DNA of 64,000 nucleotides, taken from IMG/VR virus record IMGVR_UViG_3300028197_001024, positions 1 through 64,000 of that record; one strand, written 5' to 3'. The translations under genes were made by a program, and so were the position numbers. This stretch comes from a virus. The notes beneath the pieces are model-generated. The model ran no database searches and had not been told where the DNA came from. It worked only from the letters and a program-made list of their open reading frames with translations. Numbering within the stretch: the stretch's first letter is position 1; the number at the start of each line of letters is the position of its first letter. Below, piece by piece: positions 4,937 to 24,407 of the stretch.

Positions 4937-4968
4937 ACTAATGCACACTAATGCTATATAAAAATAAA
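4934..4968 (+). promoter_or_regulatory. Putative middle promoter
   Basis: TAAAC-18 nt-TATAAAAATAAA. Confidence 0.7.
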
Positions 4969-4980
4969 TCAAATATTTAT

Positions 4981-5497: not shown

Positions 5498-6904
5498 ATG
5501 CTTTTAGATATTACACAAGAAGATAAACAATTATTTGTTTCTTATTTTAATCTTGATGGAAAAACGAGATTTAAGACTTATGATCTTAAGACAGAAGATA
5601 TGTTTAATTGGGAAGTTTGTGATGATGCAGATCCAAAGGCAGATTCAAAAATAAAAAACTGGGATGGCCGATCTGTTAAAAAAGTAAGGTCACGATGGTT
5701 AAATAAGTATAGGATTATTGAATACATGGATCAGTTATCTTTTTCTGATAGAGAATTAATTTTTGGTTATCATTTTCCAAGAACTTATTTTGTAGATATT
5801 GAAGTTGAGGTAACTGACTCTTTTCCTGAGCCAAGTAAAGCACCTAACCCAGTTACTACAATCTGTATTGTTACTCCAGAAAAACAATGTATTGTTTTAG
5901 CAACAAAAGATCTAGATAATAAAACTCAAACTAAAATTCAAAATCAAATAGATGAACATTTTAAAAATATAGATGATGATTTTACTTTTACTTTTAAATG
6001 TTTTAAATCTGAGTATGATATGATGTCAACCTTTATGATGTCATTTGTACAAAAATTTCCAATGATGACAGGTTGGAATTATATTAAATTTGATTGGCAA
6101 TACATAATTAACCGATGTAAGAAATTAGGTGTTGATATTGGATCTGCATCACCTATAGGTAGAAATTTTGGTAGAGATGAATTTCCATGCCATGTAGGAG
6201 TAATGGATTATTTAGATATTTATGCAAAGTGGGATAGGACTGTTGATATTAAAGAAGATTTTAAATTAGATACGGTAGGAGAAGCAGTAGTAGGAATTAA
6301 GAAAGTTAAATATGAAGGTACTATTCAAGATATGTATGAAAAAGATTATCCTAAATATGTTTTCTATAATGTAATTGATACAGCATTAGTTTATCTTATT
6401 CATCAAAAGATTAAGACAATGGATATTGCATTAACTATTGCCCATATGACTCAAATTAGTATATTTAAAGCAGCCTCACCAGTAGCAATTACTGAAGCGC
6501 TATTGGCAAGAGAATTTTTAACTAGGAATTTAGTAATGGCAAAAGATCCTAAAGCTCCACCTGCGAAAAGAGAACAGTTTGAAGGCGCATTTGTAAAAGA
6601 ACCAATTACTGGTATGCATAATGCTGTTGCTGCATTTGATTTTGCTTCTCTATATCCTTCTATTATGAGGCAATTAAATGTATCACCTGAAAGTTTTAAG
6701 AAAAAGGTATCACCAGAAAAAAGAAATGATGAAAGAGGAGAGAATAATATTGTATCAGTTACAGGTGCTGTGTACGATACCGAGAGATCTATATTAAAAG
6801 ATGTTCTTACTAGGTTATATGATCAAAGAAAAGAATATAAGAAAGAATCTTTTAGACTACAGCAAAAAGCATATGATTTAGAACAAGAACAGAAAAGGTC
6901 TTAA
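5498..6904 (+). CDS. gp43A: Family B DNA polymerase, N-terminal subunit (3'-5' exonuclease, motif A, first finger helix)
   Basis: DIEV (ExoI), GWNYIKFD (ExoII), YNVID (ExoIII), FDFASLYPSI (motif A). The ORF ends shortly after RKEYKK. Confidence 0.93.
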   Translation: MLLDITQEDKQLFVSYFNLDGKTRFKTYDLKTEDMFNWEVCDDADPKADSKIKNWDGRSVKKVRSRWLNKYRIIEYMDQLSFSDRELIFGYHFPRTYFVDIEVEVTDSFPEPSKAPNPVTTICIVTPEKQCIVLATKDLDNKTQTKIQNQIDEHFKNIDDDFTFTFKCFKSEYDMMSTFMMSFVQKFPMMTGWNYIKFDWQYIINRCKKLGVDIGSASPIGRNFGRDEFPCHVGVMDYLDIYAKWDRTVDIKEDFKLDTVGEAVVGIKKVKYEGTIQDMYEKDYPKYVFYNVIDTALVYLIHQKIKTMDIALTIAHMTQISIFKAASPVAITEALLAREFLTRNLVMAKDPKAPPAKREQFEGAFVKEPITGMHNAVAAFDFASLYPSIMRQLNVSPESFKKKVSPEKRNDERGENNIVSVTGAVYDTERSILKDVLTRLYDQRKEYKKESFRLQQKAYDLEQEQKRS

Positions 6905-9776: not shown

Positions 9777-10523
9777 ATGAAAGATTATACTTATATACTC
9801 GGTCCTTGTAGTATTGAAAACGAGGATACTTTTTTAGAAGTGGCCAAAACATTAGATGGCTATATGGGAGATAAAGATTGGTACTTAAAAGGATCTTTTG
9901 ATAAGGCGAATAGAACTTCTATACATTCTGATAGAGGCCCTGGTTTAGAAGAAGGAATGGAGATTATGAGAACTGTTAAGCATCATTACCCTAACATTAG
10001 AATTGTAACAGATATTCATGAACCTAATCAAGCATTACCTTTATCCGAAGTAGTTGATGTTATCCAAATACCTGCATTCTTATGTCGCCAAACTGACCTT
10101 TTAGTAGAGTGTGCAAAAAACTTTAATGTCATTAATATCAAAAAAGGTCAATGGTTATCTGCTGAGGCAATGGAACATGCAGTTACAAAGATAAAAGAAG
10201 TAGATCCTAATTGTGAAGTATGGGTAACTGAAAGAGGATCTAATTTTGGTTATGACAGACTTATTGTAGATTTTAGAGGAGTGGATGTAATGAAAAAATT
10301 TGCAGATAAAGTTATTTTAGATTGTACTCATTCAACTCAAATGGCTGGAGAAGGTATAACTGGAGGAAGTCGTAAGTTAGCAAAGCAATACGCGTTAGCT
10401 GCAAAGATTTTTGAGTATGATGGTTCATTTATTGAAACCCACCCAGATCCAGATAATGCAATATCTGACTCTGGTAGTCAAGTAGAATTAGATTGGTTAG
10501 TGACTCAAATAAATAATATATGA
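9777..10523 (+). CDS. kdsA: KDO-8-phosphate synthase
   Basis: GPCSIE, SFDKANRTS, QIPAFLCRQTDL, KKGQ, ERG, DCTHS, ETHPDP. Confidence 0.92.
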   Translation: MKDYTYILGPCSIENEDTFLEVAKTLDGYMGDKDWYLKGSFDKANRTSIHSDRGPGLEEGMEIMRTVKHHYPNIRIVTDIHEPNQALPLSEVVDVIQIPAFLCRQTDLLVECAKNFNVINIKKGQWLSAEAMEHAVTKIKEVDPNCEVWVTERGSNFGYDRLIVDFRGVDVMKKFADKVILDCTHSTQMAGEGITGGSRKLAKQYALAAKIFEYDGSFIETHPDPDNAISDSGSQVELDWLVTQINNI

Positions 10524-11569
10524 ATCTAGACTATACTAAGTTACTTAATCGTAATCCTATTTCTACCGATCTTGATAAAATCCAAGAATACATAAAAGGA
10601 AAAAGAATACTTGTTACAGGTGGTGCTGGCTCAATAGGTAGTGAAATTGTACATCAACTTGTAAAATTTGGTGCTTCTACTGTTACTGTTTATGATAATG
10701 CCGAGGCTTCTGTTTTTCATTTAGAACAAGAGATAAGCAAATTATATCCTAAGTCTCATATTAAATATGTAATAGGTGATGTAAGAGATAAGTATAGATT
10801 AGAAGAAGTTTTTGATTCCTTTAAGCCTAGTATAGTTTTTCATGCAGCTGCTTATAAACATGTGCCAATGATGGAGGCTAATCCAGTTGAAGCAATAAAG
10901 ACTAATGTATTAGGTACTATGAATGTCTCAAATATCTCATATATGAATGAGGTAGAAAAATTTGTAATGGTATCAACTGATAAAGCAGTTAATCCAACAA
11001 ACATAATGGGTGCAACTAAAAGAATTGCAGAATTATATACTCAGTTTTTAGAAACAAAATCAGCAACTAAATTTATTGTTACAAGATTTGGTAATGTATT
11101 AGGATCTATAGGCTCTGTAATTCCAACATTTATAAAACAGATTGAAGGAGGAGGACCGGTTAGTGTTACTCATAGAGAAGTTATTAGATATTTTATGACT
11201 ATACCTGAAGCATGCCAATTAGTATTACAGGCAAGTGTACTAGGAGAAGGTGGTGAAATATTATTATTTGATATGGGAGAACCTGTAAGTATTACAGATT
11301 TAGCAAAAAATTTAATAAAACATTTTAATAGTGATGCTAAAATAGAATATGTAGGATTAAGACCAGGTGAAAAATTATATGAAGAACTGTTATGTGATGG
11401 TGAAAATATGGTACCTACCGATGATCATAATATTATGAAGTTAAACCACGAGGCTTATGATTTTAAAACTTTAATACCTAAAATAGAAAAGCTATCAAAA
11501 ATAAGATCAAATGATTTTTATAAAATACTCTTGTTAATGAAAAGTATTGTACCAGAATTTAAAAGATAA
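10520..11569 (+). CDS. UDP-GlcNAc 4,6-dehydratase (CapD/PglF-like catalytic domain)
   Basis: TGGAGSIGSE, HAAAYKHVP, STDKAV, MGATK, RFGNV, GLRPGEKLYEEL. Confidence 0.92.
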   Translation: MNLDYTKLLNRNPISTDLDKIQEYIKGKRILVTGGAGSIGSEIVHQLVKFGASTVTVYDNAEASVFHLEQEISKLYPKSHIKYVIGDVRDKYRLEEVFDSFKPSIVFHAAAYKHVPMMEANPVEAIKTNVLGTMNVSNISYMNEVEKFVMVSTDKAVNPTNIMGATKRIAELYTQFLETKSATKFIVTRFGNVLGSIGSVIPTFIKQIEGGGPVSVTHREVIRYFMTIPEACQLVLQASVLGEGGEILLFDMGEPVSITDLAKNLIKHFNSDAKIEYVGLRPGEKLYEELLCDGENMVPTDDHNIMKLNHEAYDFKTLIPKIEKLSKIRSNDFYKILLLMKSIVPEFKR

Positions 11570-11571
11570 AT

Positions 11572-12642
11572 ATGATAAAAGAATTATTAGTTAATACGTT
11601 ATCACCTGAAAATGGTACTTATTTTCATATAGAAAATTTAAATCAGTGGGCATCTAAAGTAGAACTTAATGGTAAATTAGAAACTATTGAAGTAAATGGT
11701 AAAATAGCTTCTTATGTTGCATACTATGTTAATGATGAGAGGTATTTTATTACAATGGTATGGACGGATCCTATCCATCGAGGAAAGGGTCTTTCAAAAA
11801 AGATAATTAAAAAATTAGTATCATCAACAGATCTTCCAATTGATTTAAGAGTTCATAAAGATAACCCTGCATATTGGTTATATAGGAATCTTAAATTTGA
11901 AGACGTTTCAGTCCATGGTGAAGAAATAGAATTAAGAAGAGTTAAAAAGATAGGAGTTATGCAACCTTATCTTTTTCCTTATGCCGGTTATTTTGGTTTA
12001 ATAAATTCATGCGATAAGATTTTGTTTTATGATGATGTTAATTTTATTATGAGAGGTTTTATTAATAGGCAAAAAATATTGGTAAATGGATCTTCTCATA
12101 CATTTAATATTTGTTTAAGTAAAGCAAGCCACAATAAATTTATTAACGAAATTGATCTTTTAAATGATAAAAGAAAAAATTTAAAGGTACTAAAGACAAT
12201 AGAATCTTCTTATAAAAAGGCTCCTTATTTTAATGATGTTTATCCTATAATTGAAAAGGTCATTAATAGCGATTATAAAAAGTTAGATGAATTGGTAATA
12301 TCTTCTATAGTAAGTGTATGTGATTATTTAGGAATGGATATAAATTGGGAAAGATCCTCGGTTGCAGAAGGTGATACTTGTGGAATGGAAAGAGGTAAGC
12401 GCCTTACTCAAATAGCAAAAAACCAAGGTTTTAATAATTACATAAATGTTGGCCCATCAGAACTTTACACAAAAGAACAATTTAAAAGAGATGGTATAAA
12501 TTTATTTTTTAATAAACATAATGTTAAAGAATATGATCAATTTGAAAAGCCATTTTTATCTCACTTATCATGTATAGATTTTCTCATGTTTAATTCAAAA
12601 AGAAAATGCAAAGAATTAATTTTAAGTTATAATGTAATATGA
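11572..12642 (+). CDS. GNAT-WbqC fusion protein
   Basis: N-terminal HRGKGLS acetyl-CoA motif, followed by WbqC signature MQPYLFPYAGYF...YDDV.F...INR...LS.ID.L. Confidence 0.8.
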   Translation: MIKELLVNTLSPENGTYFHIENLNQWASKVELNGKLETIEVNGKIASYVAYYVNDERYFITMVWTDPIHRGKGLSKKIIKKLVSSTDLPIDLRVHKDNPAYWLYRNLKFEDVSVHGEEIELRRVKKIGVMQPYLFPYAGYFGLINSCDKILFYDDVNFIMRGFINRQKILVNGSSHTFNICLSKASHNKFINEIDLLNDKRKNLKVLKTIESSYKKAPYFNDVYPIIEKVINSDYKKLDELVISSIVSVCDYLGMDINWERSSVAEGDTCGMERGKRLTQIAKNQGFNNYINVGPSELYTKEQFKRDGINLFFNKHNVKEYDQFEKPFLSHLSCIDFLMFNSKRKCKELILSYNVI

Positions 12643-13754
12643 AAAGAATTTACTTATCACCACCTCATATGTCAGGTAAAGAACTTGACTACATAAAAGA
12701 AGCCTTTGATCAAAATTGGATTGCACCGATAGGACCTCATCTTAATTTATTTGAAGAAAAGGTAAAAGAATATACTGGTGCTAAGCACGCAGTAGCTGTT
12801 ACTTCAGGTACTGCCGGTATTCATTTAGGATTAAATGTATTAGGAGTAGGAGAAGGTGACTATGTAATATGTTCTTCTTTAACATTTATAGGAACTGTAA
12901 ATCCAATATTATATTGTGGAGCTGAGCCTATTTTTATAGATTCGGAAGAAGGGTCATGGAATATGGATCCTCTTTTATTAGAAAAGGCAATACTTAATTC
13001 TTCTGCTATAGGTAAAAAACCTAAAGCTATTATACCTGTTCATATTTTTGGTATACCTTGTAATATGGACGCAATAAAAAAATTATCAAATGAATATGAC
13101 ATACCTATTCTTGAAGATGCAGCAGAAAGTCTGGGATCTAAATTTAATAATCAACATACTGGAACCTTTGGCACTATTGGGGTTTATTCTTTTAATGGAA
13201 ATAAATTATTATCTACCTCTGGTGGTGGAGTAATAATAACAGATAATAAAGAAAAGGCTAACAAGATGAGGTTCTTGTCTACACAGGCAAAAGATCCTAT
13301 GCCATATTATCATCACACTGAAATAGGATATAATTATAGAATGAGTAATGTACTTGCTGCTATTGGGGTTGGTCAAATGGAAGTAATAGAAGATAGAATC
13401 AAAAGGACTAGAGAAATGAATGAAACTTATAGAAAGGAATTAGGAAAATATTTTTATTCATTTCAAGAAGAGTTAGAAACAGATAGGTCTAACATGTGGT
13501 TAACATGTGCTATCTTAAATGCTGAAAATAAACCAGATGATTTAATTGCTCATTTAGAAAAAGATAACATTGAAGCAAGAAGAATTTGGAAGCCTATGCA
13601 TGAACAGCCAATTCTAACTAAGTATTTGAAATATATAAATGGAAATAGTTCTTTATTATTTTTACAAGGTATATGTTTACCATCTGGGTCTAATATGACT
13701 GATGTAGATTTAAAAAGAGTAATAAGGTCAATAAAAACATTTTTTAACAAATGA
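12639..13754 (+). CDS. DegT/DnrJ sugar aminotransferase (PglE-like)
   Basis: IYLSPPHM, SGTAGIHL, EDAAESLG, SFNGNK, GYNYRMSN. Confidence 0.93.
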   Translation: MKRIYLSPPHMSGKELDYIKEAFDQNWIAPIGPHLNLFEEKVKEYTGAKHAVAVTSGTAGIHLGLNVLGVGEGDYVICSSLTFIGTVNPILYCGAEPIFIDSEEGSWNMDPLLLEKAILNSSAIGKKPKAIIPVHIFGIPCNMDAIKKLSNEYDIPILEDAAESLGSKFNNQHTGTFGTIGVYSFNGNKLLSTSGGGVIITDNKEKANKMRFLSTQAKDPMPYYHHTEIGYNYRMSNVLAAIGVGQMEVIEDRIKRTREMNETYRKELGKYFYSFQEELETDRSNMWLTCAILNAENKPDDLIAHLEKDNIEARRIWKPMHEQPILTKYLKYINGNSSLLFLQGICLPSGSNMTDVDLKRVIRSIKTFFNK

Positions 13755-14647
13755 TAAATTTTGAAGATTTCAAATTATTAGAGTCTTATATAGGAGAAGA
13801 AAACTTTGAAATTTTACTAGAAAAAAATCTTACTAGTGAAATTAACAAAAAGATTAAATTTGGTGTTGTGATGGCAACTCATAAGATAGCAGATGGTAGC
13901 GCTCAGACAGGCAGACAGAAGTACATGGATACACCTGCTATATTAAAAGATTCTTTAGGTTCAATCAAAAACCAAAAGTATGATAATTATGTAGTTTATT
14001 TAATTGGGGATAAATATGACGGTGACGAAGAAATTAAGACTGTAATGGATAGCGTAATTCCTAAAGGTAAACTTAAATATCACAATCTATCTACACCCGG
14101 TGAAAGAAATAAAGGTTTTACTAAAAAACAATTTAGATATACTGCAGGCTGTGGTGCAGTAAATAAAGGTCTACAAATGGCAAAGAATGATGGTTGTGAT
14201 TATATTGTTAGACTTGATCATGATGATAAATGGACACCTAATCATTTAGAACTTTTAGCAAAAGCATACACACAGTACCCTGAATTAGCATATGTATTTA
14301 CTAGAAGCCGTAAAAAGGTAGATGCAACAAATAGTTCAAAAAAGTTTATGTACCAACCTAGAGATGAAAGACATACTAATTTAATAGAGCCTAATAATCT
14401 AGGATACACTCACGGTGATGTTAGTCATTCTGCAGTTTCATGGAGACCTTCTATGTGTGGAGATCTAAGGTATCGTGATGCTGATGCTCAATGTAATACC
14501 GAACCTAAAATATCTAAAGAAAAAACTAATCCTGCTGACGTTGATATGTTTAATAGAATGATGAAAGCTATAAAGGATAAAGGTCACAAATACATGTACA
14601 TACCAAAACTTACCAGTTTCTATAGAAACAGAAAAGGTAAATTCTAA
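13751..14647 (+). CDS. GT-A (GT2-like) glycosyltransferase
   Basis: AVNKGL...YIVRLDHDD.W.PNHLE. Confidence 0.8.
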   Translation: MINFEDFKLLESYIGEENFEILLEKNLTSEINKKIKFGVVMATHKIADGSAQTGRQKYMDTPAILKDSLGSIKNQKYDNYVVYLIGDKYDGDEEIKTVMDSVIPKGKLKYHNLSTPGERNKGFTKKQFRYTAGCGAVNKGLQMAKNDGCDYIVRLDHDDKWTPNHLELLAKAYTQYPELAYVFTRSRKKVDATNSSKKFMYQPRDERHTNLIEPNNLGYTHGDVSHSAVSWRPSMCGDLRYRDADAQCNTEPKISKEKTNPADVDMFNRMMKAIKDKGHKYMYIPKLTSFYRNRKGKF

Positions 14648-14876: not shown

Positions 14877-14910
14877 AAAAGGGCTATCTTTAATTAGATA
14901 GTCCTTTTTT
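14877..14910 (+). terminator. Intrinsic terminator
   Basis: AAAAGGGCTATCT-ttaatt-AGATAGTCCTTTTTT. Confidence 0.85.
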
Positions 14911-14934
14911 AGTTTTTATTATCCTATTATACTT

Positions 14935-14968
14935 GAAACTTTTTTTAAAACTTCTATATAATAATAAA
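14935..14968 (+). promoter_or_regulatory. Putative middle promoter of the modification operon
   Basis: GAAAC-17 nt-TATAATAATAAA. Confidence 0.7.
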
Positions 14969-14981
14969 TCAGTTAATTTAT

Positions 14982-15533
14982 ATGGAAAGGTGCTTAATAT
15001 TAGATTTTGACGATACTTTAGTTTCAACTATAGATACTCATGCAAATTCTTGGAAACTTGCAATAGAAAGAGTTCTAAATAGAGATATTCCTATAGAAAC
15101 AATAATGTCAGATATTAATTATGGCATGGACGTTCTATTAAAGAAATATCAACTAACCGAAAAGGAATCTAAATTAGCACAAGATTATAAAAGAAAAATA
15201 TTTTCAAAGAATCTCCATAAAACCAAAATAAATCAATTACTTTTATGGGTAATTAAAAATTCTAAATTTGAAAAAGTTATTATAGCTTCTAATTCATCTA
15301 GAGAAAATGTAGATAGAATTATGGCTTACCATAATATAAGCCCTGATTTATTCGATCTTATTGTAACTAGAGATGATGTTAAAAATAAAAAGCCACACTC
15401 AGAAATGGCAGATTTAATTTTTTCAGTATTTCATGGTTATGAACCTAATGATTTTCTTATGGTTGGTGATTCAGAAGTAGATTCAACATTCGCACTTAAA
15501 AACAAAATGAAATGCATACTGGTAAAGTTTTAG
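14982..15533 (+). CDS. HAD-family phosphatase
   Basis: LDFDDTLV, IASNS, KKP, VGDSEVD. Confidence 0.9.
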   Translation: MERCLILDFDDTLVSTIDTHANSWKLAIERVLNRDIPIETIMSDINYGMDVLLKKYQLTEKESKLAQDYKRKIFSKNLHKTKINQLLLWVIKNSKFEKVIIASNSSRENVDRIMAYHNISPDLFDLIVTRDDVKNKKPHSEMADLIFSVFHGYEPNDFLMVGDSEVDSTFALKNKMKCILVKF

Positions 15534-16258
15534 TAGGAAATAGTGGAGATAGAGTATATCTTCAAGATGACAAAGTTATTAAAGAAGCAGGTGTTTATCC
15601 TATAAAGTTTAAACAACAAATGGATTGGTTAGCAAACTGTACCCATCCTAATTTTATAAAAATTAAACCTATTTCAGATACTTCATTTGAAATGAAAAAG
15701 TACCCTACATGGTATGACAAGATTTGTGAACAGCCTTTAATTAAATCAATTGATCAATTGGATGATCTTATTCATATTGCTAATGATTTTGATGGATATG
15801 GTGCTGATGTAGATACAAGATCATATTTAGATAAATTAGAAGGTAGAACCGGGTATAAGTATGAAGGTAATTTAGATGCGGCATCTTCATGGGGTTTTGT
15901 ACACGGAGACTTAACAGTAAGCAATATTCTTTATGATAAAGATTTTATATTTATAGATCCAAGAGGCACAGAAGAACAGAATTATTATGATTATGGAAAA
16001 CTGATGCAATCATTTGTAATGAAATATGAGGCCCATATATACAATGAAAGGAATTCTAAATATCTTAAGTTCTGTAGAGAAGCTGAAAATATAATGTATG
16101 AATGGTATGACGAATATCAATTAAAATTCTTTTTAGCAGTTCACCTATTAGGGGCCGTGCCTTTCTTTGAGCTAAATGAAAGATATGAATTGGCTGGTAT
16201 GTTCCTTAAAAAAGGTCATGAATTATTTGATGAATTAGAAATAAAATATAGTAAATGA
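15512..16258 (+). CDS. APH/choline-kinase-like small-molecule kinase
   Basis: GNSG, HGDLTVSNIL, FIDPRG, YDYGKL. Confidence 0.85.
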   Translation: MHTGKVLVGNSGDRVYLQDDKVIKEAGVYPIKFKQQMDWLANCTHPNFIKIKPISDTSFEMKKYPTWYDKICEQPLIKSIDQLDDLIHIANDFDGYGADVDTRSYLDKLEGRTGYKYEGNLDAASSWGFVHGDLTVSNILYDKDFIFIDPRGTEEQNYYDYGKLMQSFVMKYEAHIYNERNSKYLKFCREAENIMYEWYDEYQLKFFLAVHLLGAVPFFELNERYELAGMFLKKGHELFDELEIKYSK

Positions 16259-16959
16259 AAAGAGTAAGTAAAGCAATTATATTAGCAGCAGGTCGTTCAA
16301 CAAGATATGGCAAAAACAAATTAGTAGATCCTATCTTAGGTAAATCAACTGTTGAATATTGTATTGAATTTTGTATTGAGAATGGAATAGAAGATTGCTA
16401 TATTACAATCAGTAAAGCAGATTTCTTTTTTAAAGATAACGTAAAACTTTCTCATCCTATTATTGAAAAACTAAACAAATACAAAAAGGATATTAATATC
16501 TTTTATGAATTTCAAAAGGATGATGAATATGGACCAGGCGCCGCTATAAAGGTTTGGTCTGGTAAATTTAATGAAGCTTTCTTATGTTTATTTGGAGATA
16601 ATTACTACCAAGGAAATATAGGATTAGAATATCATGATCCAAACAGTACAGTTGTTACTTATAAAGATTATGAAACAAGAGCTAGGAATTTACAATTAGC
16701 ATCTATATTAGAAAATGTTGTTATTGAAAAACCGCATGGAATTGTTTCAGGAAGGTACTTCTGTGGTTATATGATATTTTCAAAAGAAGCATTTAATAAT
16801 CTTGACAGTATTAAAATGTCAAATAGAAATGAATATGAAATTACCCATTTGATTAACTCAATGGATAATTTAAAATTTGAAGAATTAGATATATGTTGGT
16901 ATGACTTAACATATGAAAATGATAAAGAAGTAATAGAAGAATTAATAAAAACATGTTAA
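16255..16959 (+). CDS. Sugar-1-phosphate nucleotidyltransferase (RmlA-like)
   Basis: AIILAAGRSTRY..K, FGDN, IEKP, SNRNEYEIT. Confidence 0.9.
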   Translation: MKRVSKAIILAAGRSTRYGKNKLVDPILGKSTVEYCIEFCIENGIEDCYITISKADFFFKDNVKLSHPIIEKLNKYKKDINIFYEFQKDDEYGPGAAIKVWSGKFNEAFLCLFGDNYYQGNIGLEYHDPNSTVVTYKDYETRARNLQLASILENVVIEKPHGIVSGRYFCGYMIFSKEAFNNLDSIKMSNRNEYEITHLINSMDNLKFEELDICWYDLTYENDKEVIEELIKTC

Positions 16960-18222
16960 ATGGAAAATGTTAAAAAAATAGGTTTCTTTAAACTAGGTAA
17001 AGCGATTAAGTTTAATGAAAACAGTTGGAGTGCAATCGGTGGTGATTGTGAACCTAAACAATTAATCTGTTCAATTGCAAAAAGAAACCCTAATATTGAA
17101 TATTGGTTATTAAGCCCAAATGATTTAGGTAAGTTTAGAGCTAAACAAAAACCTAAAGTAAATTCTTTATTTGGCCCTCCTCCTACAGATGAACCCGTAG
17201 TTCCTAATAATATTAAGGAATTTCATTCAACTATGAAGGAGAGAAAATCTACTGATGAAACTGTTGAAATTATTCAAGGTTTAGATTTAGATTTTATTTT
17301 CTTTTATACTGGTCCAACAAGTACCGTTAATATTCCAGAGTATATTAATAAGAAAGATGGTACTGGTCAAGTTAAGTCATTAGACTTCTTTAAGTATTAT
17401 GCTGCTCCTATTATTAAATCAATGAATGAGTTGGAAAAGAAAGTTCCTATTGTTGGTTTACTTGTTGATAACCGTTATATTCTTGCATGTAAAGACTGGG
17501 GAATTAATAATAGACCAACTTATTACTTAGCACAAAATACATTTACTAAAGAAGAACAATATTTCTGTAACCCACCACTAAGAGATGTTAAAACTATTAC
17601 ATCTACTTATGAATATTCAGGCATTGAAACGGTATTCTTATTAGATAAGAAAAGATATGATACTGATGAATTATTTAAAATGAAAAAGACTGATTCATTT
17701 ATGATGTTACAGAATCAAGGTAAAGGTTCAGGTGGAATGGATCGTTGGGATCCAGTAAAAGAATATATTGTTGATCAAGAAATAGAGACTGATATTTACG
17801 GAAAATGGGATGATGAGATTAAGGAAATGTATCCTAAATGGTTTAAAGGAGAAACGAGAATTGAAACAATGACCGATGAATTACTTGGTACTAAATATAC
17901 ATTCTGTGTACCTATTAAAGAAGGTATGGTAACCTCTAAGTATGCCGAAATGCTACACTATGGTATTATACCATTCTTACACCCGTCTTACGACACCGAC
18001 TTTAATGTCTTTCCAGAAGGTCATTTTATTAGATGTAAATCAGCAGAGGATTTAAAAAAGAAAATTGAATTCTTAAATGCAAACCCAGAGCATTATAAGA
18101 AATTATTTTATAACCTACAAGAAAAGTATCTTAAGGATTCTTATTATACCGGAGAACATGTAGACAACAAGATCTGGGAATCTTATGAACGAGTAACTAA
18201 AACTGAAACTATAAATGTATAA
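16960..18222 (+). CDS. GT-B glycosyltransferase resembling T4 DNA beta-glucosyltransferase
   Basis: KIGFFKLG..., LLVDNRY, and C-terminal VTSKYAEML..IPFL..YDT...SAEDLKKKIEFL parallel T4 BGT as recalled from memory. Confidence 0.65.
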   Translation: MENVKKIGFFKLGKAIKFNENSWSAIGGDCEPKQLICSIAKRNPNIEYWLLSPNDLGKFRAKQKPKVNSLFGPPPTDEPVVPNNIKEFHSTMKERKSTDETVEIIQGLDLDFIFFYTGPTSTVNIPEYINKKDGTGQVKSLDFFKYYAAPIIKSMNELEKKVPIVGLLVDNRYILACKDWGINNRPTYYLAQNTFTKEEQYFCNPPLRDVKTITSTYEYSGIETVFLLDKKRYDTDELFKMKKTDSFMMLQNQGKGSGGMDRWDPVKEYIVDQEIETDIYGKWDDEIKEMYPKWFKGETRIETMTDELLGTKYTFCVPIKEGMVTSKYAEMLHYGIIPFLHPSYDTDFNVFPEGHFIRCKSAEDLKKKIEFLNANPEHYKKLFYNLQEKYLKDSYYTGEHVDNKIWESYERVTKTETINV

Positions 18223-19237
18223 TTCCGAAACAAAAATCCTAGTCACTGGTGGTGCTGGGTTCGTTGGTACAAATTTTATTAACGATTTATTAAATAGAGG
18301 TCATAATCCAAAATGCATTGCGGTTATTGATAACATGGAGCACGGTACTTATATTGCAAAGGTACATGACCAAATTGAAAATTTTCATAAAGTAGATATT
18401 AGAAATCAATATGTAGAAAACATTATCCAAGAGTTTTCACCCGATTATGTTTACCACTTTGCTGGTTTAGTTTCTATTTATGACTGCCATGAAGATCCGT
18501 ATGAAGCCGTAGATAATAATATCTTAGGAAGTATTAATGTAATGAATGGTTGTGTAAAGGCAGATGTAAAAAGAATTATCTTTAGTGAAACTTCTGCAGT
18601 ATATGAAAATTGTGAAATGCCTAAAGAAGGATTTAACGAAAAGCAATCTGATCCTACTACAATTTATTCTACTACTAAAGCATGCCTTGCTCTATTGGCA
18701 GAATCATATCAGAGAACTAAAGGTTTAAATTATACTGCATTAAGATACTTTAATGTTGCAGGGCCTCTACAAGATTATAATAGAACCATCCCACCTGTAT
18801 TTGCTGGGTTTATTTTAAGAATTAAAGGTAATCATAATCCTATAGTGTTTGGTGATTATATGAAAGCAAGAGATTATATTGATGTATCTGATGTTAATGC
18901 ATTTCATATTCTTTGTATGGAAAATGAAAACACTGCAAACCAAACATTTAATTTAGGTACTGGTAAAATGACAAACTTAATGGATCTTAAAAATATGATT
19001 GGTGAGATTATGGGAGTTGGTGAACCTACATTTGATCACTATGATCCTATTGCAGGTGAAGCTCTAAATATTAGAGGAGATATTTCTAAAGCTAAGTCAA
19101 TGGGATGGGAACCTAAAAAAGATATCAGAGATACGATAAAAGAAACGATAGTTTATCTTGAAGAAGAAATTAACCAAGGGACTATTGATCCACTAACATT
19201 TATGGAAAATTTAGAAATCGAAAAAGTAAAAATTTAA
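18215..19237 (+). CDS. NAD-dependent NDP-sugar epimerase/dehydratase
   Basis: TGGAGFVG, YSTTK (YxxxK), LRYFNV.G, RDYIDV.D. Confidence 0.92.
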   Translation: MYNSETKILVTGGAGFVGTNFINDLLNRGHNPKCIAVIDNMEHGTYIAKVHDQIENFHKVDIRNQYVENIIQEFSPDYVYHFAGLVSIYDCHEDPYEAVDNNILGSINVMNGCVKADVKRIIFSETSAVYENCEMPKEGFNEKQSDPTTIYSTTKACLALLAESYQRTKGLNYTALRYFNVAGPLQDYNRTIPPVFAGFILRIKGNHNPIVFGDYMKARDYIDVSDVNAFHILCMENENTANQTFNLGTGKMTNLMDLKNMIGEIMGVGEPTFDHYDPIAGEALNIRGDISKAKSMGWEPKKDIRDTIKETIVYLEEEINQGTIDPLTFMENLEIEKVKI

Positions 19238-19238
19238 T

Positions 19239-20501
19239 ATGGAAAAAGAATTAAAATGGGGTACTATGATTCCGTTAATCGGTGGGAGTGCAATAGGTTG
19301 TAAAAAATCTGCAGGTAATGAGCCAGCATTTCATTTAAGCTATGAAGCAATGGCTGCTAATGAAAGTCATATCGAAAAATATTGGCCAGAAGTACCTATG
19401 TACAGATTAGATCATGAAGATTTAGATATACCTGAGAAAACATTTCAAGAAGTAGATTATGTAAATTCTGTTTGCCCGTGTGCAGGTTTGTCACAGTTAA
19501 ATTCTGCGAAAGGTAGTGCATCATCTAGAGGATCCGATGCGGTTCAAAATCAATGGATGTATAATTCAGCAGAGTATGTTTTGGAGAATGTTAAACCTAA
19601 AGTACTTTGGGGAGAAAATGCACCAGGGCTTTTTACTAAAATGGGAGAAGGTGTTGTTGACAATCTTAAAGCCATCGGTGAGAAATATGGATATAGCTTT
19701 TCATTAATTAAAACTAACACTGAGTTGCATGGAATTCCACAAAGAAGAATAAGAACATTTTATTTCTTTTGGAATACACCAACAGTTCCTATGTTAAGTT
19801 GGAAGTTTAGAGAAAAGAAAAATCTTATTGATTATCTTAATGAAATACCAGAAGATGCTACACAACAGGATATGTTTATGGTTGAAGGCAAAGTCAGTGA
19901 TCATTTTAAACCTTACGAATATGTTTTAGAAAAAGAAGGTTTAACGCATTCTGAATTTGCTGCCAAATTTAAAAAGGGTACTATCGCTCAATATCTAGAA
20001 AAGAATGAATTAATACCTGATTGTATTAAATGGTTAGAAAAACATTATCCTAAAAGAGGGTTTTCAAATAAAAAATCTACAAAGACTTTTATTGATATGC
20101 TAGAACACCAAGAATACAAAACGAGCCAAGGTTTAGGTTACTGGGATGCATCACCGCATTTCTTCCATGATTCTTTTTCTGCCCTTATAGGTAGAAACAT
20201 GTTTAATGGTGTTCATCCTATAGAAAACAGATATCTTAATGTAAGAGAAATGCTTCACTTAATGGGGCTACCTTTAGATTTTGGTATTGAAAGTTCAAGG
20301 CAAGTAAATCATATTGCACAAAATGTACCAGTTACTACTGCAATGGATATGGCAGATGAAGTAAAGAAATTTTGTAATGGAGAAGCTAAGATGACAAATT
20401 ACACCTTCTTAAAACAAGATAATACTAGTCACAAAATAATTGACTCTACTGAAATTGGAGCAGAACCAAAAAAGAAGTATAAAGTAAAAAGTATAATTTA
20501 A
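19239..20501 (+). CDS. C5-cytosine DNA methyltransferase homologue with atypical SAM-binding motifs
   Basis: Motifs IV CPCAGLS, VI GENAPGL, VIII GIPQRRIR and IX RYLNVRE..LMGLP are present. Motif I reads IPLIGG and motif X reads IAQNVP. Confidence 0.85.
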   Translation: MEKELKWGTMIPLIGGSAIGCKKSAGNEPAFHLSYEAMAANESHIEKYWPEVPMYRLDHEDLDIPEKTFQEVDYVNSVCPCAGLSQLNSAKGSASSRGSDAVQNQWMYNSAEYVLENVKPKVLWGENAPGLFTKMGEGVVDNLKAIGEKYGYSFSLIKTNTELHGIPQRRIRTFYFFWNTPTVPMLSWKFREKKNLIDYLNEIPEDATQQDMFMVEGKVSDHFKPYEYVLEKEGLTHSEFAAKFKKGTIAQYLEKNELIPDCIKWLEKHYPKRGFSNKKSTKTFIDMLEHQEYKTSQGLGYWDASPHFFHDSFSALIGRNMFNGVHPIENRYLNVREMLHLMGLPLDFGIESSRQVNHIAQNVPVTTAMDMADEVKKFCNGEAKMTNYTFLKQDNTSHKIIDSTEIGAEPKKKYKVKSII

Positions 20502-20508
20502 ATTAATT

Positions 20509-21525
20509 ATGAAAGATAAAGGATTAGCCATAGGTATATCAAGCCTAGAGTTTACTAATATCTTATGTAGTTATTATCCTAAAGGGATCAAAGAAAAATT
20601 TGATATCTATTTATTTGTGGATGATACTAAAATAGATTTAGAAAAGCTTCAGTGTATTTTTGAAGAGCATGATTTAGATATTTTTAAAAATGCAAAGATT
20701 ATAATTTTAAATGACCTTTATAACCATTACATAGAAAAACATGGTTACGAAGGAAGATCAAAAGAATTTCTATTAAGTCATGGCTGCCTCTTTAAAATAT
20801 TAATGCCTATATACTTAAAGGAAAAATTTGGAGTAAAAAGAACATTAGTATCAGATGATGATGTATTTATTTTAAACGATCTTAGTTATATGTGGGATGA
20901 ATATGAAGAGTTTGGCATAAAAAAGGAAAACTTATTTTACATTAGAAATAAAGATAAGTATGAAGTCATGGATTGTTTTAACGGTATTTTTGAATCTAAT
21001 TTTAGCTTAGATGAAATGAATGCCCTTTCCATAAATGCAGGCAATATAATATATGGAGAAGATCCTAAATTAGAATATTACTTTGAGAGATTTATGAAAC
21101 ACCCATTTATACATCATCAGTATTTTAATTTTACTGGGTATACAAGTTGGACTGTAGAACAAAGATTCCATCACTTTAATGTTCATAGGTATTTAGCAGA
21201 AGGAAGAAAGGTTAAATTTACTGAAAGTAAAGACTTAAGATTAATGCAGAATAGAGACAAGATGATGAAAGCAGGTACACCACCAGACAAATATCTTAAA
21301 GTAGTTGTACCTTCTATAATTCATTATGCAATAGGTGTAAAGAAGCCTCTATGGTTAAATGATTTTTTACCAGGATTAGAATGGAGATACGGTTTTAAGT
21401 ATGAAGCAAAATACGAACTTAAAAATATCTTATACGATAAAAATTGGTCACCGCCTTCGTTTAAAAGTATACAAAAGAATGGATTTATATTAAAAAAGGA
21501 ATTAAAAACAAAATCAATATTTTAA
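20509..21525 (+). CDS. Putative GT-A (GT8-like) glycosyltransferase
   Basis: VSDDDVF (DxD), INAG, EQ, IIHYA..K. Confidence 0.6.
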   Translation: MKDKGLAIGISSLEFTNILCSYYPKGIKEKFDIYLFVDDTKIDLEKLQCIFEEHDLDIFKNAKIIILNDLYNHYIEKHGYEGRSKEFLLSHGCLFKILMPIYLKEKFGVKRTLVSDDDVFILNDLSYMWDEYEEFGIKKENLFYIRNKDKYEVMDCFNGIFESNFSLDEMNALSINAGNIIYGEDPKLEYYFERFMKHPFIHHQYFNFTGYTSWTVEQRFHHFNVHRYLAEGRKVKFTESKDLRLMQNRDKMMKAGTPPDKYLKVVVPSIIHYAIGVKKPLWLNDFLPGLEWRYGFKYEAKYELKNILYDKNWSPPSFKSIQKNGFILKKELKTKSIF

Positions 21526-21551
21526 AAGATAAAATTACAAAAAGAAAATAG

Positions 21552-22349
21552 ATGAAAGATAGAAAAAGTATACCTGTTATTGGAGTTCCTGTAGTAAATG
21601 GAGTTCATTGGGTAAAAAGATTAATGCTATCAGTTGATTACCCTGTAGATAATTTATTTATAATTAATAATAATGGAAGAGGAGAAATTAATGAAGAATT
21701 AGATAAGTTAAAAAATATATCTAATAAATTTATTAAGAATATACACATTACACATTTACCTAGTAATTTAGGAGTCCCGGCAGCTTGGAATTTAATTATT
21801 AAATCATTTTTAATGGAGCCTTATTGGATAATTTCTAACCATGATGTTGCCTTTTCACCTGGTTTATTAGAAGAATTTTCAAATATGGCTCAGGATAAAC
21901 AAATAAGTATGATTCATCCTAGAGCAGGTGTATTTGGTGTAGGTACATATGATTTATTTGCTATAACTGAAATAGGGGTAAAAACGATAGGATTATTTGA
22001 TGAAAATTTATATCCTGCTTATGGAGAAGATACTGATTATATAATGAGAGTTCTAAATTTAAATCCAAAGGTTTGTAGAGGATTGACTTATACTTATTTA
22101 CATGGAAAAGAAATAGCCGATTGTGTCAATTATGAAAATAATGGTCGACAAACGTCTAAAGAAGAACCTCAAATGCAAGAAAAATTAAATAATGTTAATT
22201 ATAAAAATTACAAATATTTAGATGAAAAATGGGGAGAGCATTGGAGAGGTTTAACTCCTTATAAATTTCCTTTTAATAATAAAGAATATTCTAATTCTTA
22301 CACTTCATGGGATATAGATTATATAAGAGAAAAATATTTAGACTTTTAA
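21552..22349 (+). CDS. GT2-like glycosyltransferase
   Basis: IINNN, NLGVPAAWN, NHDV, IGLFDEN.YPAYGEDTDY. Confidence 0.85.
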   Translation: MKDRKSIPVIGVPVVNGVHWVKRLMLSVDYPVDNLFIINNNGRGEINEELDKLKNISNKFIKNIHITHLPSNLGVPAAWNLIIKSFLMEPYWIISNHDVAFSPGLLEEFSNMAQDKQISMIHPRAGVFGVGTYDLFAITEIGVKTIGLFDENLYPAYGEDTDYIMRVLNLNPKVCRGLTYTYLHGKEIADCVNYENNGRQTSKEEPQMQEKLNNVNYKNYKYLDEKWGEHWRGLTPYKFPFNNKEYSNSYTSWDIDYIREKYLDF

Positions 22350-22444: not shown

Positions 22445-23194
22445 ATGGAAACAAAAATTAACAAAATTGACGGTTATGAATTAAGTTCATTCGTTCGCAA
22501 ATTACTTCCAATTGACAAATTCATCTTTATGAAAATCGCAAAAGAGGGTACTGTATCTTCTGTGTATTTCCCTGAGAGGGATGCCGTAAAATTGGTTAAC
22601 ACACCTACCTCAGATATATTTGAGGCTGATATTGAAAACCCAGTAAAGGTAAGCTTTTACAATGGTACTAAAGTTATTGATGCATTAAGCCATTTTAATG
22701 GTGATGTAAAAGGTCGCATTAAATATACTGAATATGATGGAGAATTAATGGCAAGTGATTTTATTTTAGAAAATGAAGATCTTCAGATTAATTTAGCCTG
22801 TACAGATCCTTCGTTATCTTTTATGGAAATGAGTAAAGAAGAAACTGACCGAGCGTTTGATGTGGATTCTAAAATGTTTAGTTTTGATTTACTTACTACT
22901 CATGTAGATAAAATGAAATCATTATTTAATTTAGATAAAGATGAGGATATCTTTACTCTCTATATTGGAGAAAAAGGAATTAACATTAAAGGTACTTCTT
23001 ATGACGCTACGCTATGTCACTCTTATGATTCTGATGTAGAGAAAGGTTCAAAGGTTGTCATATACAAAAAATATGTTAATCTTCTAGATAAAGAAAATTA
23101 TAAGGTAAGTGTATGTGAAAACAAGGTTGTTTTCAAATCATTAGATACAAATACACACCTTACTGTGGCTGTGGCCATTACTGATGAGGATTAA
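22445..23194 (+). CDS. Probable sliding clamp (gp45-like)
   Basis: About 250 aa, acidic, alternating beta/alpha pattern, next to the polymerase. LLDKENYKVSV resembles clamp C-termini. Confidence 0.6.
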   Translation: METKINKIDGYELSSFVRKLLPIDKFIFMKIAKEGTVSSVYFPERDAVKLVNTPTSDIFEADIENPVKVSFYNGTKVIDALSHFNGDVKGRIKYTEYDGELMASDFILENEDLQINLACTDPSLSFMEMSKEETDRAFDVDSKMFSFDLLTTHVDKMKSLFNLDKDEDIFTLYIGEKGINIKGTSYDATLCHSYDSDVEKGSKVVIYKKYVNLLDKENYKVSVCENKVVFKSLDTNTHLTVAVAITDED

Positions 23195-23209: not shown

Positions 23210-23238
23210 AAAAAGGGCATCATAATCGGTGCCCTTTT
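23210..23238 (+). terminator. Intrinsic terminator
   Basis: AAAAGGGCATC-ataatc-GGTGCCCTTTT. Confidence 0.8.
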
Positions 23239-23272: not shown

Positions 23273-24391
23273 ATGACAGAGGAATTACAAAAAATCAACG
23301 AAGAAGCATCAAAATTCTATAATTACGAACAGGCTGTTAAATTAATGCTTAACTCTATTTACGGTGCATTTGGTAATCCTTATTTTTATTTCTTTAATGT
23401 TGATATTGCAGAAACTATTACACTCCAAGGTAAAGATGCAATTCTATATACTGAACAATTAGTTAATAAGTATTTTAAGGAATTCTGGCATAAGGATTTA
23501 CCAGCTCATGCTGCTATGGGTATTACTGTAACTGGTAAAATTGAAAAACCTGTAGGTATTTATATTGATACAGATTCAGTGTATGTTAAATTTGATGAAG
23601 TAATTCAAAAATCAGAAGGCTGGGTTGGTGATGAAAAAGAATTTATACTTAAGCTTTATAAGGTTAGGTTAAATGGTTACATAGAAAAGATTCTACAAAA
23701 ATATGCAGATGATAATAATGCAGAAAACTTTTTATCTTTTGAATTAGAAAGTATTGCTAAAAATGCAATATGGTTGGCAAAGAAAAAGTATATGCAGAAT
23801 ATAGTTTGGAAGGATCCTGATATTCATTACGATGATCTCTCTAAGATTAGTTCAAAAGGATTTGAAATCATTCAGTCATCTACCCCTATTTTTGCAAGAG
23901 AAAAACTAAAAGAACTATTAACTTATATCTTTTCTGTTAGTGAATTAGATATGGGAGCCTTTGCTTCTTTACTTAAAGATGTTAAAAGGCAATTTAGATT
24001 AGCCAATGTTGATCAAATTAGTTTTTCAAGAAAAGTAAATAATTATCAAAAGTATATTGTAAATGATTATGAGCAATTTGAAATTGCATCAAAATGTCCA
24101 ATTGGTGTAAGATCTGCAGGCTATCATAATTACTTACTAAATAATTCAGGCAAGAAAGGTAAATATCAACCACTAGGAAATGGTGAAAAATGTAAAATGT
24201 ATTTTTCTGAAGATAAGTCATGTGATGTGTTTGCTTATGCACCAGGTGATTTTCCTTATGAGTTCGCGCCTAAAATAGATTATGATAGGCAATTTGAAAA
24301 AACAATATTGGATCCTATAAACAGAGTTGTTACTGCTATGGGTTTTAAAGGATTTAACAGAAATCTTATTTACACAACCAGCCTATTTTAA
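23273..24391 (+). CDS. gp43B: Family B DNA polymerase, C-terminal subunit (motifs B and C, thumb)
   Basis: KLMLNSIYGAFG, YIDTDS, AKKKY, KGFEIIQSSTP. Confidence 0.93.
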   Translation: MTEELQKINEEASKFYNYEQAVKLMLNSIYGAFGNPYFYFFNVDIAETITLQGKDAILYTEQLVNKYFKEFWHKDLPAHAAMGITVTGKIEKPVGIYIDTDSVYVKFDEVIQKSEGWVGDEKEFILKLYKVRLNGYIEKILQKYADDNNAENFLSFELESIAKNAIWLAKKKYMQNIVWKDPDIHYDDLSKISSKGFEIIQSSTPIFAREKLKELLTYIFSVSELDMGAFASLLKDVKRQFRLANVDQISFSRKVNNYQKYIVNDYEQFEIASKCPIGVRSAGYHNYLLNNSGKKGKYQPLGNGEKCKMYFSEDKSCDVFAYAPGDFPYEFAPKIDYDRQFEKTILDPINRVVTAMGFKGFNRNLIYTTSLF

Positions 24392-24407
24392 TAAAAATAA
24401 AATAAAG

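Follow-up and report, generated by a model that had tools for sequence, protein, structure and literature searches.

A T4-like phage operon with probable roles in glycosylating hydroxymethylcytosine, a variant of the T-even/RB69 DNA modification systems

The DNA analyzed here, called the window throughout, is the first 64 kb (positions 1 to 64,000) of a 74,467-bp virus contig in IMG/VR (record IMGVR_UViG_3300028197_001024), and our subject is a compact operon within it that probably serves the glycosylation of cytosines in phage DNA. Nearly all genes of the window lie on the plus strand, and its GC content is about 30%. CheckV places the completeness of the contig at about 27%. The window encodes T4-type homologs of the portal protein gp20, the prohead protease (gp21), gp15, UvsX, a gp41-like helicase, and gp46, as well as both subunits of ribonucleotide reductase and a family-B DNA polymerase. 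As judged from its T4-type homologs, the source is a distant T4-like myophage, neither a cellular locus nor a eukaryotic giant virus. A giant virus origin had been prompted by the low GC content and by Hc1, Nei, and sugar genes; it was ruled out by the T4-type portal, prohead protease, gp15, UvsX, and gp41 homologs. The same lineage is also represented by contigs of 200 to 219 kb in a protein database, and a blastn comparison of the operon with 50,697 phage records returned zero matches.

The operon comprises eight open reading frames (ORFs) on the plus strand, with ends that overlap or nearly abut. In order, they encode a HAD protein, a kinase, a nucleotidyltransferase, a GT-B glycosyltransferase (GT), an epimerase, a homolog of C5-cytosine methyltransferases (MTases), a GT8-like enzyme, and a GT2 enzyme (Table 1). 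An earlier reading made from the letters alone, here the sequence-only reading, had described this packed unit, and every one of its ORFs is present. That reading had also described an upstream terminator and a middle-type promoter. The terminator and a near-consensus promoter are indeed there, but a MotA-type middle promoter was ruled out by the absence of a TGCTT box. An exact-pattern search returned only the operon's own copy of the promoter. The common class emerged solely from an alignment of upstream regions, in which the operon promoter aligned with the regions preceding the sliding-clamp candidate, both polymerase halves, uvsX, and the helicase gene; the class shared by these replication genes and the operon has the form TAAAC-N~17-TATATAAxAATAAA.

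Co-occurrence across phages, a check that the sequence-only reading had suggested for all eight genes, proved complete for a core of six. Among 37 close-relative loci (L003 to L039), the genes for the HAD protein, kinase, nucleotidyltransferase, GT-B, epimerase, and MTase are constant, whereas the GT8-like gene is found in some only and the GT2 gene in none (0/37). The genomic position of the operon is also informative. The two halves of a split DNA polymerase gene lie 16.4 kb apart and form the borders of an insert that contains the ribonucleotide reductase genes, sugar genes, an Hc1-like gene, and the modification operon, and uvsX follows downstream of the C-terminal half. The order in T4 is 43, imm, 42, beta-gt, uvsX, and the RB69 arabinosylation cluster occupies the same gap between gene 43 and uvsX. 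The operon therefore sits in the ancestral modification slot.

Table 1. Features of the operon and its surroundings, in window positions unless the contig is named
Feature	Position	Strand	Evidence or remarks
HAD phosphatase or phosphomutase	14982..15533	+	PF13419, E 2e-21; beta-PGM family TIGR02009, E 2e-13, below that family's cut-off
APH/AfhE-type anomeric sugar kinase	15512..16258	+	APH Pfam, E 0.008 (weak); phrog_21938, E 4e-11; motifs
Sugar-1-phosphate nucleotidylyltransferase	16255..16959	+	TIGR03992, E 1e-17; PDB 2ggo, E 3e-10; 5z09, E 2e-9
BGT-like GT-B DNA glycosyltransferase (P0002)	16960..18222	+	profile and fold match to T4 BGT
GalE-like NDP-sugar 4-epimerase (extended SDR)	18215..19237	+	PF01370, E 2e-46; 4zrm (UDP-glucose 4-epimerase), E 4e-40
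Atypical C5-cytosine MTase-fold enzyme (P0001), tail ...KVKSII	19239..20501	+	PF00145, E 2.5e-19
GT8-like GT-A glycosyltransferase (P0003), tail ...KTKSIF	20509..21525	+	AF2 fold, Foldseek
GT2 glycosyltransferase	21552..22349	+	PF00535, E 1e-5; phrog_29879, E 5.5e-27
Intrinsic terminator, 3' of Hc1-like gene	14877..14908	+	13-bp stem, then T run
Operon promoter	14933..14962	+	TTGAAA-N18-TATAAT, 11/12 consensus matches
Terminator closing the unit	23211..23238	+	11-bp stem
gp42-type dCMP hydroxymethylase	contig 70728-71636		Pfam thymidylate-synthase; PDB match to T4 gp42
gp56-like dCTPase/dUTPase (all-alpha NTP pyrophosphohydrolase)	4951..5475	+	34% identity to T4 gp56 over 109 aa, E 6e-25; phrog_173, E 8e-19
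N-terminal half of split T4-type DNA polymerase (gene 43A-like; exonuclease + N-palm)	5498..6904	+	PF03104 + PF00136 profile positions 16-137
C-terminal half of split DNA polymerase, ends ...YTTSLF	23273..24391	+	PF00136 profile positions 145-388
Conserved 249-aa protein, candidate sliding clamp (lead only), own promoter	22445..23194	+	atlas feature search: gp45-slide_C in 10% of the members of its nearest named cluster
uvsX	from 26146		
Upstream sugar genes: Kdo-8-P synthase, PseB-like 4,6-dehydratase, GNAT-WbqC fusion, DegT aminotransferase, GT2	9777..14647	+	Pfam
Hc1-like protein (58 aa)	14682-14858		PF07432, E 3e-23
Fpg/Nei-family DNA glycosylase	4100-4936		Neil1-type DNA-binding domain
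595-aa ORF	24327-26114		no family match
Sigma-70-family (ECF-like) factors (two)	3014-3586; contig 73744-74382		
ATP-grasp enzyme (492 aa)	contig 71654-73132 (L002:8655-10133)		weak matches to sugar-transfer-associated ATP-grasp and RimK-like families

Judged by both profile and predicted fold, the GT-B enzyme is a true remote homolog of T4 beta-glucosyltransferase (BGT; CAZy family GT63). A search of 1.8 billion representatives recovered relatives in 379 clusters, and when a profile of 61 relatives was compared with all PDB sequences, T4 BGT was the sole clear match (1nzd, E 4e-7; 1bgt, E 2e-6; next match, E 1e-3). An AlphaFold2 (AF2) model with a predicted local distance difference test score (pLDDT) of 93.6 was used in a Foldseek search, in which ranks 1 to 6 were all T4 BGT (E 2e-10 to 4e-8). 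Within the motif LLVDNRY, D170 is invariant in the family and R172 nearly so, resembling the catalytic YLFTD100IR of BGT; the N-domains did not align by hidden Markov model. Also, homologs of the GT-B enzyme adjoin thymidylate synthase (TS) homologs of the 5-hydroxymethylcytosine (5hmC or hmC) type, along with AfhE/AfhF-like genes, in two other phages. The cluster of Pseudoalteromonas phage XG4 reads TS homolog, small HAD, nucleotidyltransferase/kinase fusion, BGT-like GT, second GT-B, and MTase, and in Enterococcus phage 9183 the BGT-like gene comes after Tmk, an hmC-type TS homolog, a dUTPase, and an AfhE-like fusion.

A BGT-like enzyme raises the question of where the hydroxymethyl handle comes from. 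The sequence-only reading saw no TET enzyme or hydroxymethylase in the operon or window, which is literally correct, but a Pfam thymidylate-synthase search of the whole contig returned a single gene, 6.7 kb beyond the window end, and it encodes a gp42-type dCMP hydroxymethylase. Its best PDB matches are T4 gp42 (1b49, E 9e-23) and MilA, with ThyA well behind (4e-11), and it is 33% identical to T4 gp42. The active site (DFVC...RSND...D; DFVC...RSNDLILGTPTD) holds the catalytic Cys, an Asp at Cys-3, an Asp at the position of ThyA-169, and an Asp at the position of ThyA-177. Work on related enzymes found that N177D gives dCMP specificity, that an acidic residue at L143 accompanies a non-methyl product, and that D169N marks 5-hydroxy-dCMP synthases (PMC13326640). 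Retention of D169 thus assigns the TS homolog to the hydroxymethylase type. Tmk-like (phrog_761, E 2e-13) and guanylate-kinase-like genes lie immediately upstream of it. Directly downstream is a gene for an ATP-grasp enzyme, which could add an amino acid or similar group to the modified base or sugar.

Related genomes tell the same story. Six related contigs are long enough to reach the expected position of the hydroxymethylase gene, and all six have it; the three that lack it stop short of that position. TET/JBP dioxygenases (PF12851, Tet_JBP) gave no match at E ≤ 1 in the contig and nine related records, which include sequences of 181 and 140 kb and come from incomplete genomes. The one unassigned ORF adjacent to the operon looks clamp-like, not dioxygenase-like. 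Most likely, to go by these homologies, the hydroxymethyl handle is made by classical T4-type enzymes encoded elsewhere in the genome and not by the MTase of the operon.

The sequence-only reading had proposed the opposite, namely, a distinct route that lacks a hydroxymethylase and any pre-replicative step, in which the handle that the GTs use, a hydroxymethyl or hydroxyl group, may be placed on the cytosines of DNA by the MTase homolog itself. In its favor, TS-family and TET genes are absent from the 64 kb of the window, and motif I of the MTase is altered. We now give the idea almost no credence, and this part of the earlier proposal has to be abandoned. A gp42-type hydroxymethylase with the full active-site signature is encoded on the same contig, a gp56-like dCTPase is encoded inside the window, and the hydroxymethylase co-occurs in the informative relatives and in most of the divergent loci described below. 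In XG4, moreover, the TS homolog heads the very cluster that contains the MTase and BGT-like enzymes. The sequence-only reading had itself named a co-occurring dCMP hydroxymethylase elsewhere in the genome as the observation that would speak against its route, and such an enzyme is what the search of the contig and its relatives found.

The sugar, in turn, would be supplied by the phage. By analogy with AfhF, the HAD protein would convert a sugar bisphosphate to a sugar-1-phosphate. The kinase has the invariant motifs H131-G-D133, N138, I148-D-P-R-G152, Y159-D, and K163 (HGDxxxxN, IDPRG, and YDxxK), and shares them with three other kinase domains, those of RB69 gp52, of Enterococcus phage 9183 gp47, and of an XG4 protein of 559 aa in which a nucleotidyltransferase and a kinase are fused. 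RB69 gp52:53 is the equivalent of AfhE, a characterized enzyme that serves both as arabinose-5-phosphate kinase and as UDP-arabinose pyrophosphorylase, and this sugar logic of kinase, HAD, and nucleotidyltransferase has been characterized for RB69, DLP3, and HY126 (PMC13326640). The nucleotidyltransferase of the operon has weak similarity (E 1e-4) to the N-domain of Enterococcus phage 9183 gp47. In a metavirome preprint (bioRxiv 10.1101/2023.12.21.572611), heptosyl-5hmC was shown to be the product of a HAD/APH protein acting with a cytidylyltransferase and a BGT-like GT, and a Kdo-like adduct (Kdo, 3-deoxy-D-manno-octulosonate) that of another BGT-like GT. The same study found that most GT-B clusters are linked to ThyS and that their surroundings include epimerases, APH kinases, secondary GTs, and methyltransferases. 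The earlier suggestion that the BGT-like enzyme adds a phage-made sugar is supported as probable, by BGT homology, synteny, and co-occurrence.

Shared sugar logic also brings to mind a different base. In RB69, DLP3, and Thanatos, the TS homolog makes 5-hydroxy-dCMP (5hoC); were this so here, the sugar would be ether-linked directly to the ring. The kinase, HAD, and nucleotidyltransferase logic of the operon is that of arabinosyl-5hoC phages (PMC13326640), and a relative of the present phage encodes a homolog of arabinose-5-phosphate isomerase that is 35% identical to RB69 gp55. However, the diagnostic D169N is absent from the TS homolog, which keeps the Asp (RSND) as T4 gp42 does, versus RSQN in RB69 gp48. 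The TS homolog is also closer to T4 gp42 (96 bits) than to RB69 gp48 (62 bits), and the isomerase gene of the relative adjoins a KdsB-like gene, which fits Kdo synthesis. A 5hoC base is, in our estimation, highly improbable, and we return to hmC as the predicted acceptor.

Past the MTase, the operon encodes two further GTs. The GT8-like enzyme (P0003) yielded an AF2 model with a pLDDT of 86.5, and its Foldseek neighbors were XXYLT1, LARGE1, glycogenin, and LgtC (probability, 1.0; E 1e-8 to 1e-5; TM score, 0.4 to 0.5). The residues D117-D118 of its DDD motif are invariant. By this model, P0003 is a GT-A fold nearest to GT8 enzymes; a Pfam search gave no match, so that GT8 membership at the sequence level is unproven. 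Homology, synteny, and co-occurrence support as probable the earlier claim that the GT-A enzymes extend the first sugar.

The C termini of several of these proteins offer a separate line of evidence for their substrate. The T4 polymerase ends ...SLDFLFG and the RB69 polymerase ends ...SLFDMFDF, and these peptides bind the sliding clamp. In the present lineage, the polymerase-type tail is of the form ...S[LIV][FI]: the C-terminal half of the polymerase ends ...YTTSLF, the MTase ends ...KVKSII or ...KVNSVI, and 27 of 29 homologs of the GT8-like enzyme end [S/T/K/P][L/V/I]F. Several relatives have a BGT-like enzyme with the ending ...KATSLF or ...KSKSLF, whereas in the GT-B of the window KPKVNSLF stands at residues 64 to 71, in an internal disordered loop. 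In a second T4-like lineage in IMG/VR (loci L085 to L114), the MTase is paired with an AGT-like (PF11440) glucosyltransferase, a dCMP deaminase, ThyX, and a protein of the DUF1599 family ("nucleotide modification associated"), and there the tails are of another type (...LE[DE]FFV): the polymerase ends ...TLEDFFV, the MTase ends ...LQLDAFMV or ...SSLEEFLK, and the AGT-like GT ends ...TSLEEFFV. In the lineages compared, the polymerase-type tail is absent from TS homologs, epimerases, UvsX, deaminases, and ThyX. This covariation of the tail with the polymerase of each lineage suggests that the DNA-acting modification enzymes are tethered to the clamp, and its presence on the GT8-like enzyme supports DNA as the target of that enzyme. 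As for the clamp itself, the conserved 249-aa protein encoded beside the operon is a lead only; its BLAST match to T4 gp45 was not significant (E 0.09), and a phmmer search of the PDB gave no match.

Further sugar genes occur in the vicinity. Upstream of the operon lies a block of genes whose content differs among close relatives and which is possibly a second sugar supply. A relative with a 65%-complete genome (locus L052, G001:67659-71057) encodes a KdsD-like isomerase, the RB69 gp55 homolog mentioned above, together with a KdsB-like cytidylyltransferase and a GT4 enzyme. Taken with the Kdo-8-phosphate synthase of the window, the KdsD-like and KdsB-like genes indicate that the lineage can probably make CMP-Kdo too; together, the sugar genes of the window and the relative would amount to a CMP-Kdo route and a diamino-sugar route.

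These genes speak for a rival view in which some or all of the GTs have targets other than DNA, for example, virion proteins or a host glycan, and in which the operon and the Kdo and amino-sugar genes form one glycan island. Upstream are the Kdo-8-phosphate synthase, the PseB-like dehydratase, the GNAT-WbqC fusion, the DegT aminotransferase, and a GT2 enzyme, and the relative adds its KdsD-like, KdsB-like, and GT4 genes. Also, GT2 and GT8 families mostly act on glycans, lipids, and proteins, and P0003 and the GT2 enzyme are variable accessories of the operon. Nevertheless, the GT-B is specifically BGT-like and recurs beside hmC-type TS homologs, the GT8-like enzyme has a polymerase-type tail, and the operon's promoter class is common to replisome genes. 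No flippase, polymerase, or priming transferase is found in the island, and no protein of the island, including those of the upstream sugar genes, has a transmembrane-like segment, which argues against a lipid-linked surface-glycan pathway. Moreover, the metavirome preprint documents phage clusters that put Kdo, heptose, and oligosaccharides on 5hmC (bioRxiv 10.1101/2023.12.21.572611). For these reasons, we regard non-DNA targets as improbable.

The most puzzling member of the operon is the MTase homolog (P0001). It scores 70 bits against PF00145 (cut-off, 22), with a match only from profile position 47. The sequence-only reading had pointed to altered motifs for S-adenosylmethionine (SAM), and this is borne out: motif I reads IIPLIGG instead of FxGxGG, invariantly across the family, and the motif II acid is not conserved, with a column that reads E/N/S/D/P. 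An acidic residue is kept at the motif III position. Motifs IV, VI, VIII, IX, and X are invariant across the family, which has C79-P-C81-A-G-L (PCAGLS), G125-E-N-A-P (GENAPGL), P167-Q-x-R-x-R-T-F, R336-E...M-G-x-P, and Q361-N-V-P (QNVPV). An hhalign comparison of the family with Escherichia coli Dcm produced an alignment over motifs IV to VIII only. The family is large, with 2,301 matches and at least 588 stretches in IMG/VR.

Its genomic company is telling. We assembled 51 viral loci outside this lineage whose MTases are 36 to 54% identical to P0001. A TS homolog lies within 10 kb of the MTase in 33 of the 51; among the 23 loci that span 14 kb or more, the number is 21. All 31 linked copies, full-length or partial, have the hmC-type D/D/D signature. 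Other neighbors in the 51 loci are SDR epimerases (30), UvsX (27), dCMP deaminases (25), AGT-like DNA alpha-glucosyltransferases (24), DnaB-like helicases (21), and nucleotidyltransferase/HAD proteins (14). Because of this linkage to TS homologs and other module neighbors, the MTase is, on gene-neighborhood grounds, a regular part of hmC-glycosylation modules. Literature searches returned no paper on the MTase-hydroxymethylase pairing, on DNA modification in S-TIM5, or on phage XG4.

Two observations on the wider family may be recorded here. Cyanophage S-TIM5 (locus L045; gp076 and gp080) encodes an MTase of the same family about 3 kb from a "thymidylate synthase" that has an Asp at ThyA-N177 (RSND...D) and a Ser at Cys-3, and S-TIM5 may thus modify dCMP too. 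Short marine contigs and a set of eukaryotic transcriptomes (eukprot GFUD...) contain longer homologs (P0037 to P0087; 600 to 710 aa, about 55% identity), one of which has a zf-CXXC domain, and this hints at exchange between these phages and protists or protist viruses.

A regular place in hmC modules is paradoxical for an enzyme that targets C5, a position that should be occupied already. Our tentative answer, held at somewhat less than even odds, is that the MTase acts as a SAM-dependent C5-methylase covering those cytosines that escape replacement. A second answer, which we consider unlikely but a genuine alternative, is that it is a non-methylating enzyme tethered at the fork and acting on 5hmC in nascent DNA. 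It would flip 5hmC or its glycoside and, through covalent catalysis by attack of Cys81 on C6, would remove, trim, exchange, or elaborate the C5 substituent, or else only hand the flipped base to the GTs. The linkage to gp42-type enzymes in the divergent loci, with 31 copies all D/D/D, speaks for this, as does a family in which catalytic motifs IV, VI, and VIII are invariant yet motif I is IIPLIGG, the motif II acid is not conserved, and the N-terminal half goes unrecognized by canonical MTase profiles. With a gp56 homolog present, C5 should be occupied already. C5-MTases are also said (Liutkeviciute et al., 2009 and 2011) to add and remove aldehydes and to couple thiols at C5 in vitro. However, motif X (QNVPV), motif IX, and the motif III acid are kept, so that SAM binding is plausible; the S-TIM5 homolog lies near a TS homolog of S/D/D signature and has no GT nearby; and we know of no natural precedent for a non-methylating role of a C5-MTase on hmC.

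We propose, with a probability of roughly 0.72, that the operon belongs to a T-even/RB69-type pre-replicative hmC pathway in which the phage makes the sugar itself and the glycan is probably extended. In this pathway, the gp56-like dCTPase would clear dCTP, and hm-dCTP would take its place ahead of replication, as in T4; the gp42-type TS homolog would make 5-hydroxymethyl-dCMP; the adjacent Tmk-like kinase, whose substrate is putative, would begin the phosphorylation of hm-dCMP; and the split polymerase would incorporate hm-dC. The operon, transcribed from the promoter class of the replisome genes, would supply the sugar: a host sugar phosphate would be converted by the kinase to a bisphosphate, by the HAD protein to a sugar-1-phosphate, and by the nucleotidyltransferase to a nucleoside diphosphate (NDP)-sugar, the C4 of which would be adjusted by the GalE-like epimerase. 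The BGT-like GT-B would then attach a first sugar to the 5hmC of duplex DNA, further sugars would be added to it by the GT8-like enzyme and the strain-specific GT2 enzyme, and the MTase-fold enzyme would act on DNA at the fork. The earlier description of the operon as a DNA-cytosine hypermodification module stands, supported by homology, synteny, and co-occurrence.

Several points weigh against this proposal. The phage is uncultured, and its system is known here from genes alone. The best relative is about 65% complete and the present contig about 27%, and a dioxygenase elsewhere in the genome is conceivable. In the sugar module, the HAD protein belongs to a subfamily other than that of RB69 gp51, the identity of the kinase is based on motifs with no significant family match, and a sugar-phosphate isomerase is absent from the operon. 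The neighboring Kdo and amino-sugar genes resemble surface-glycan genes. Finally, canonical MTase profiles align to P0001 only from about residue 46 to 72 onward, with the N-terminal cofactor half unmatched, and full replacement by gp56 and gp42 would leave a C5-methylase no obvious substrate, which makes the part of our proposal that concerns the MTase weak.

Other genes of the neighborhood deserve mention in their own right. The Hc1-like protein, a chlamydial-type histone H1-like protein whose gene lies just 5' of the operon and is kept in relatives, is a possible DNA-compaction protein of the phage. The Fpg/Nei-family DNA glycosylase is unusual for a phage with probable modified cytosines. 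Between the C-terminal polymerase half and uvsX is the 595-aa ORF, which in close relatives is 49 to 60% conserved or absent. The phage also encodes two sigma factors, one in the window and one beyond it.

If correct, our reading adds large T4-like phages of an abundant but uncultured group to the known carriers of glycosyl-cytosine systems of the T4/RB69 type. The predicted non-glucose, possibly oligomeric sugar on hmC would be relevant to restriction and CRISPR resistance and to sequencing bias in viromes. The genetic link of a whole C5-MTase-fold family to dCMP hydroxymethylases, in phages whose cytosines should have an occupied C5, poses an enzymological puzzle, and if the fork-tethered action on 5hmC that we consider unlikely proved true, it would be a new enzymatic step in cytosine hypermodification. 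Also, the occurrence of the polymerase tail on DNA-acting enzymes but not on nucleotide-level enzymes suggests a physical coupling between base modification and the replisome, and the tail could serve as a sequence marker separating DNA-directed GTs from other phage GTs.

The operon is a member of a described kind, a variant of the T-even/RB69 systems. With the T-even glucosyl-hmC pathway, it has in common homologs of gp56, gp42 (with the same active-site signature), and the beta-GT, the slot between gene 43 and uvsX, and a predicted division into a pre-replicative handle and a post-replicative sugar. It differs in that the sugar would come from its own module of kinase, HAD, nucleotidyltransferase, and epimerase and not from host UDP-glucose, that extra GT-A enzymes suggest a longer glycan, and that a C5-MTase-fold gene lies inside the operon. 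Its hydroxymethylase is 51 kb away and next to a Tmk-like rather than a gp1-like kinase. Moreover, the C termini of its modification enzymes have polymerase-like tails, a feature missing from T4 alpha- and beta-GT.

The arabinosyl-5hoC (Afh) clusters of RB69, DLP3, and HY126 (PMC13326640) resemble the present system in their TS homolog, Tmk-like kinase, HAD, APH-type kinase, nucleotidyltransferase, and GT-B, in their position between gene 43 and uvsX, and in the use of several GTs that build oligosaccharides on DNA. Unlike them, the present phage has a TS homolog that keeps Asp169 (hmC type) in place of D169N (5hoC type), a kinase and a nucleotidyltransferase encoded by separate genes and not fused, and a HAD protein of another subfamily. 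Its operon has no isomerase but has an added GalE-like epimerase and MTase, and its GT-B is BGT-like, not GT4-like.

Metavirome clusters associated with MT/5mYOX (TET) or ThyS, especially the "subclass III" contig 53, also resemble the operon (PMC8256090; bioRxiv 10.1101/2023.12.21.572611). They share the BGT-like GT-B, HAD/APH proteins, nucleotidyltransferase, epimerases, and secondary GTs, with a C5-MTase in the neighborhood. Unlike the MT/5mYOX clusters, this lineage has 5mYOX in 0 of 10 records, and hence the MTase here cannot be the first step of an MT-to-TET route. Neither the tight pairing of MTase and hydroxymethylase nor the shared replisome-type tails are described in the parts of the two reports that were consulted.

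Finally, canonical C5-MTases (M.HhaI, M.HaeIII, and Dcm; PF00145) are similar in size to P0001 and share its motifs IV (PC), VI (EN), VIII (QxRxR), IX, and X and a variable target-recognition region between VIII and IX. P0001 departs from them in its motif I (IIPLIGG), in the lack of a conserved motif II acid, and in 45 to 70 N-terminal residues unmatched by profiles, as well as in a family that almost always adjoins a dCMP hydroxymethylase and in a polymerase-like C-terminal tail.

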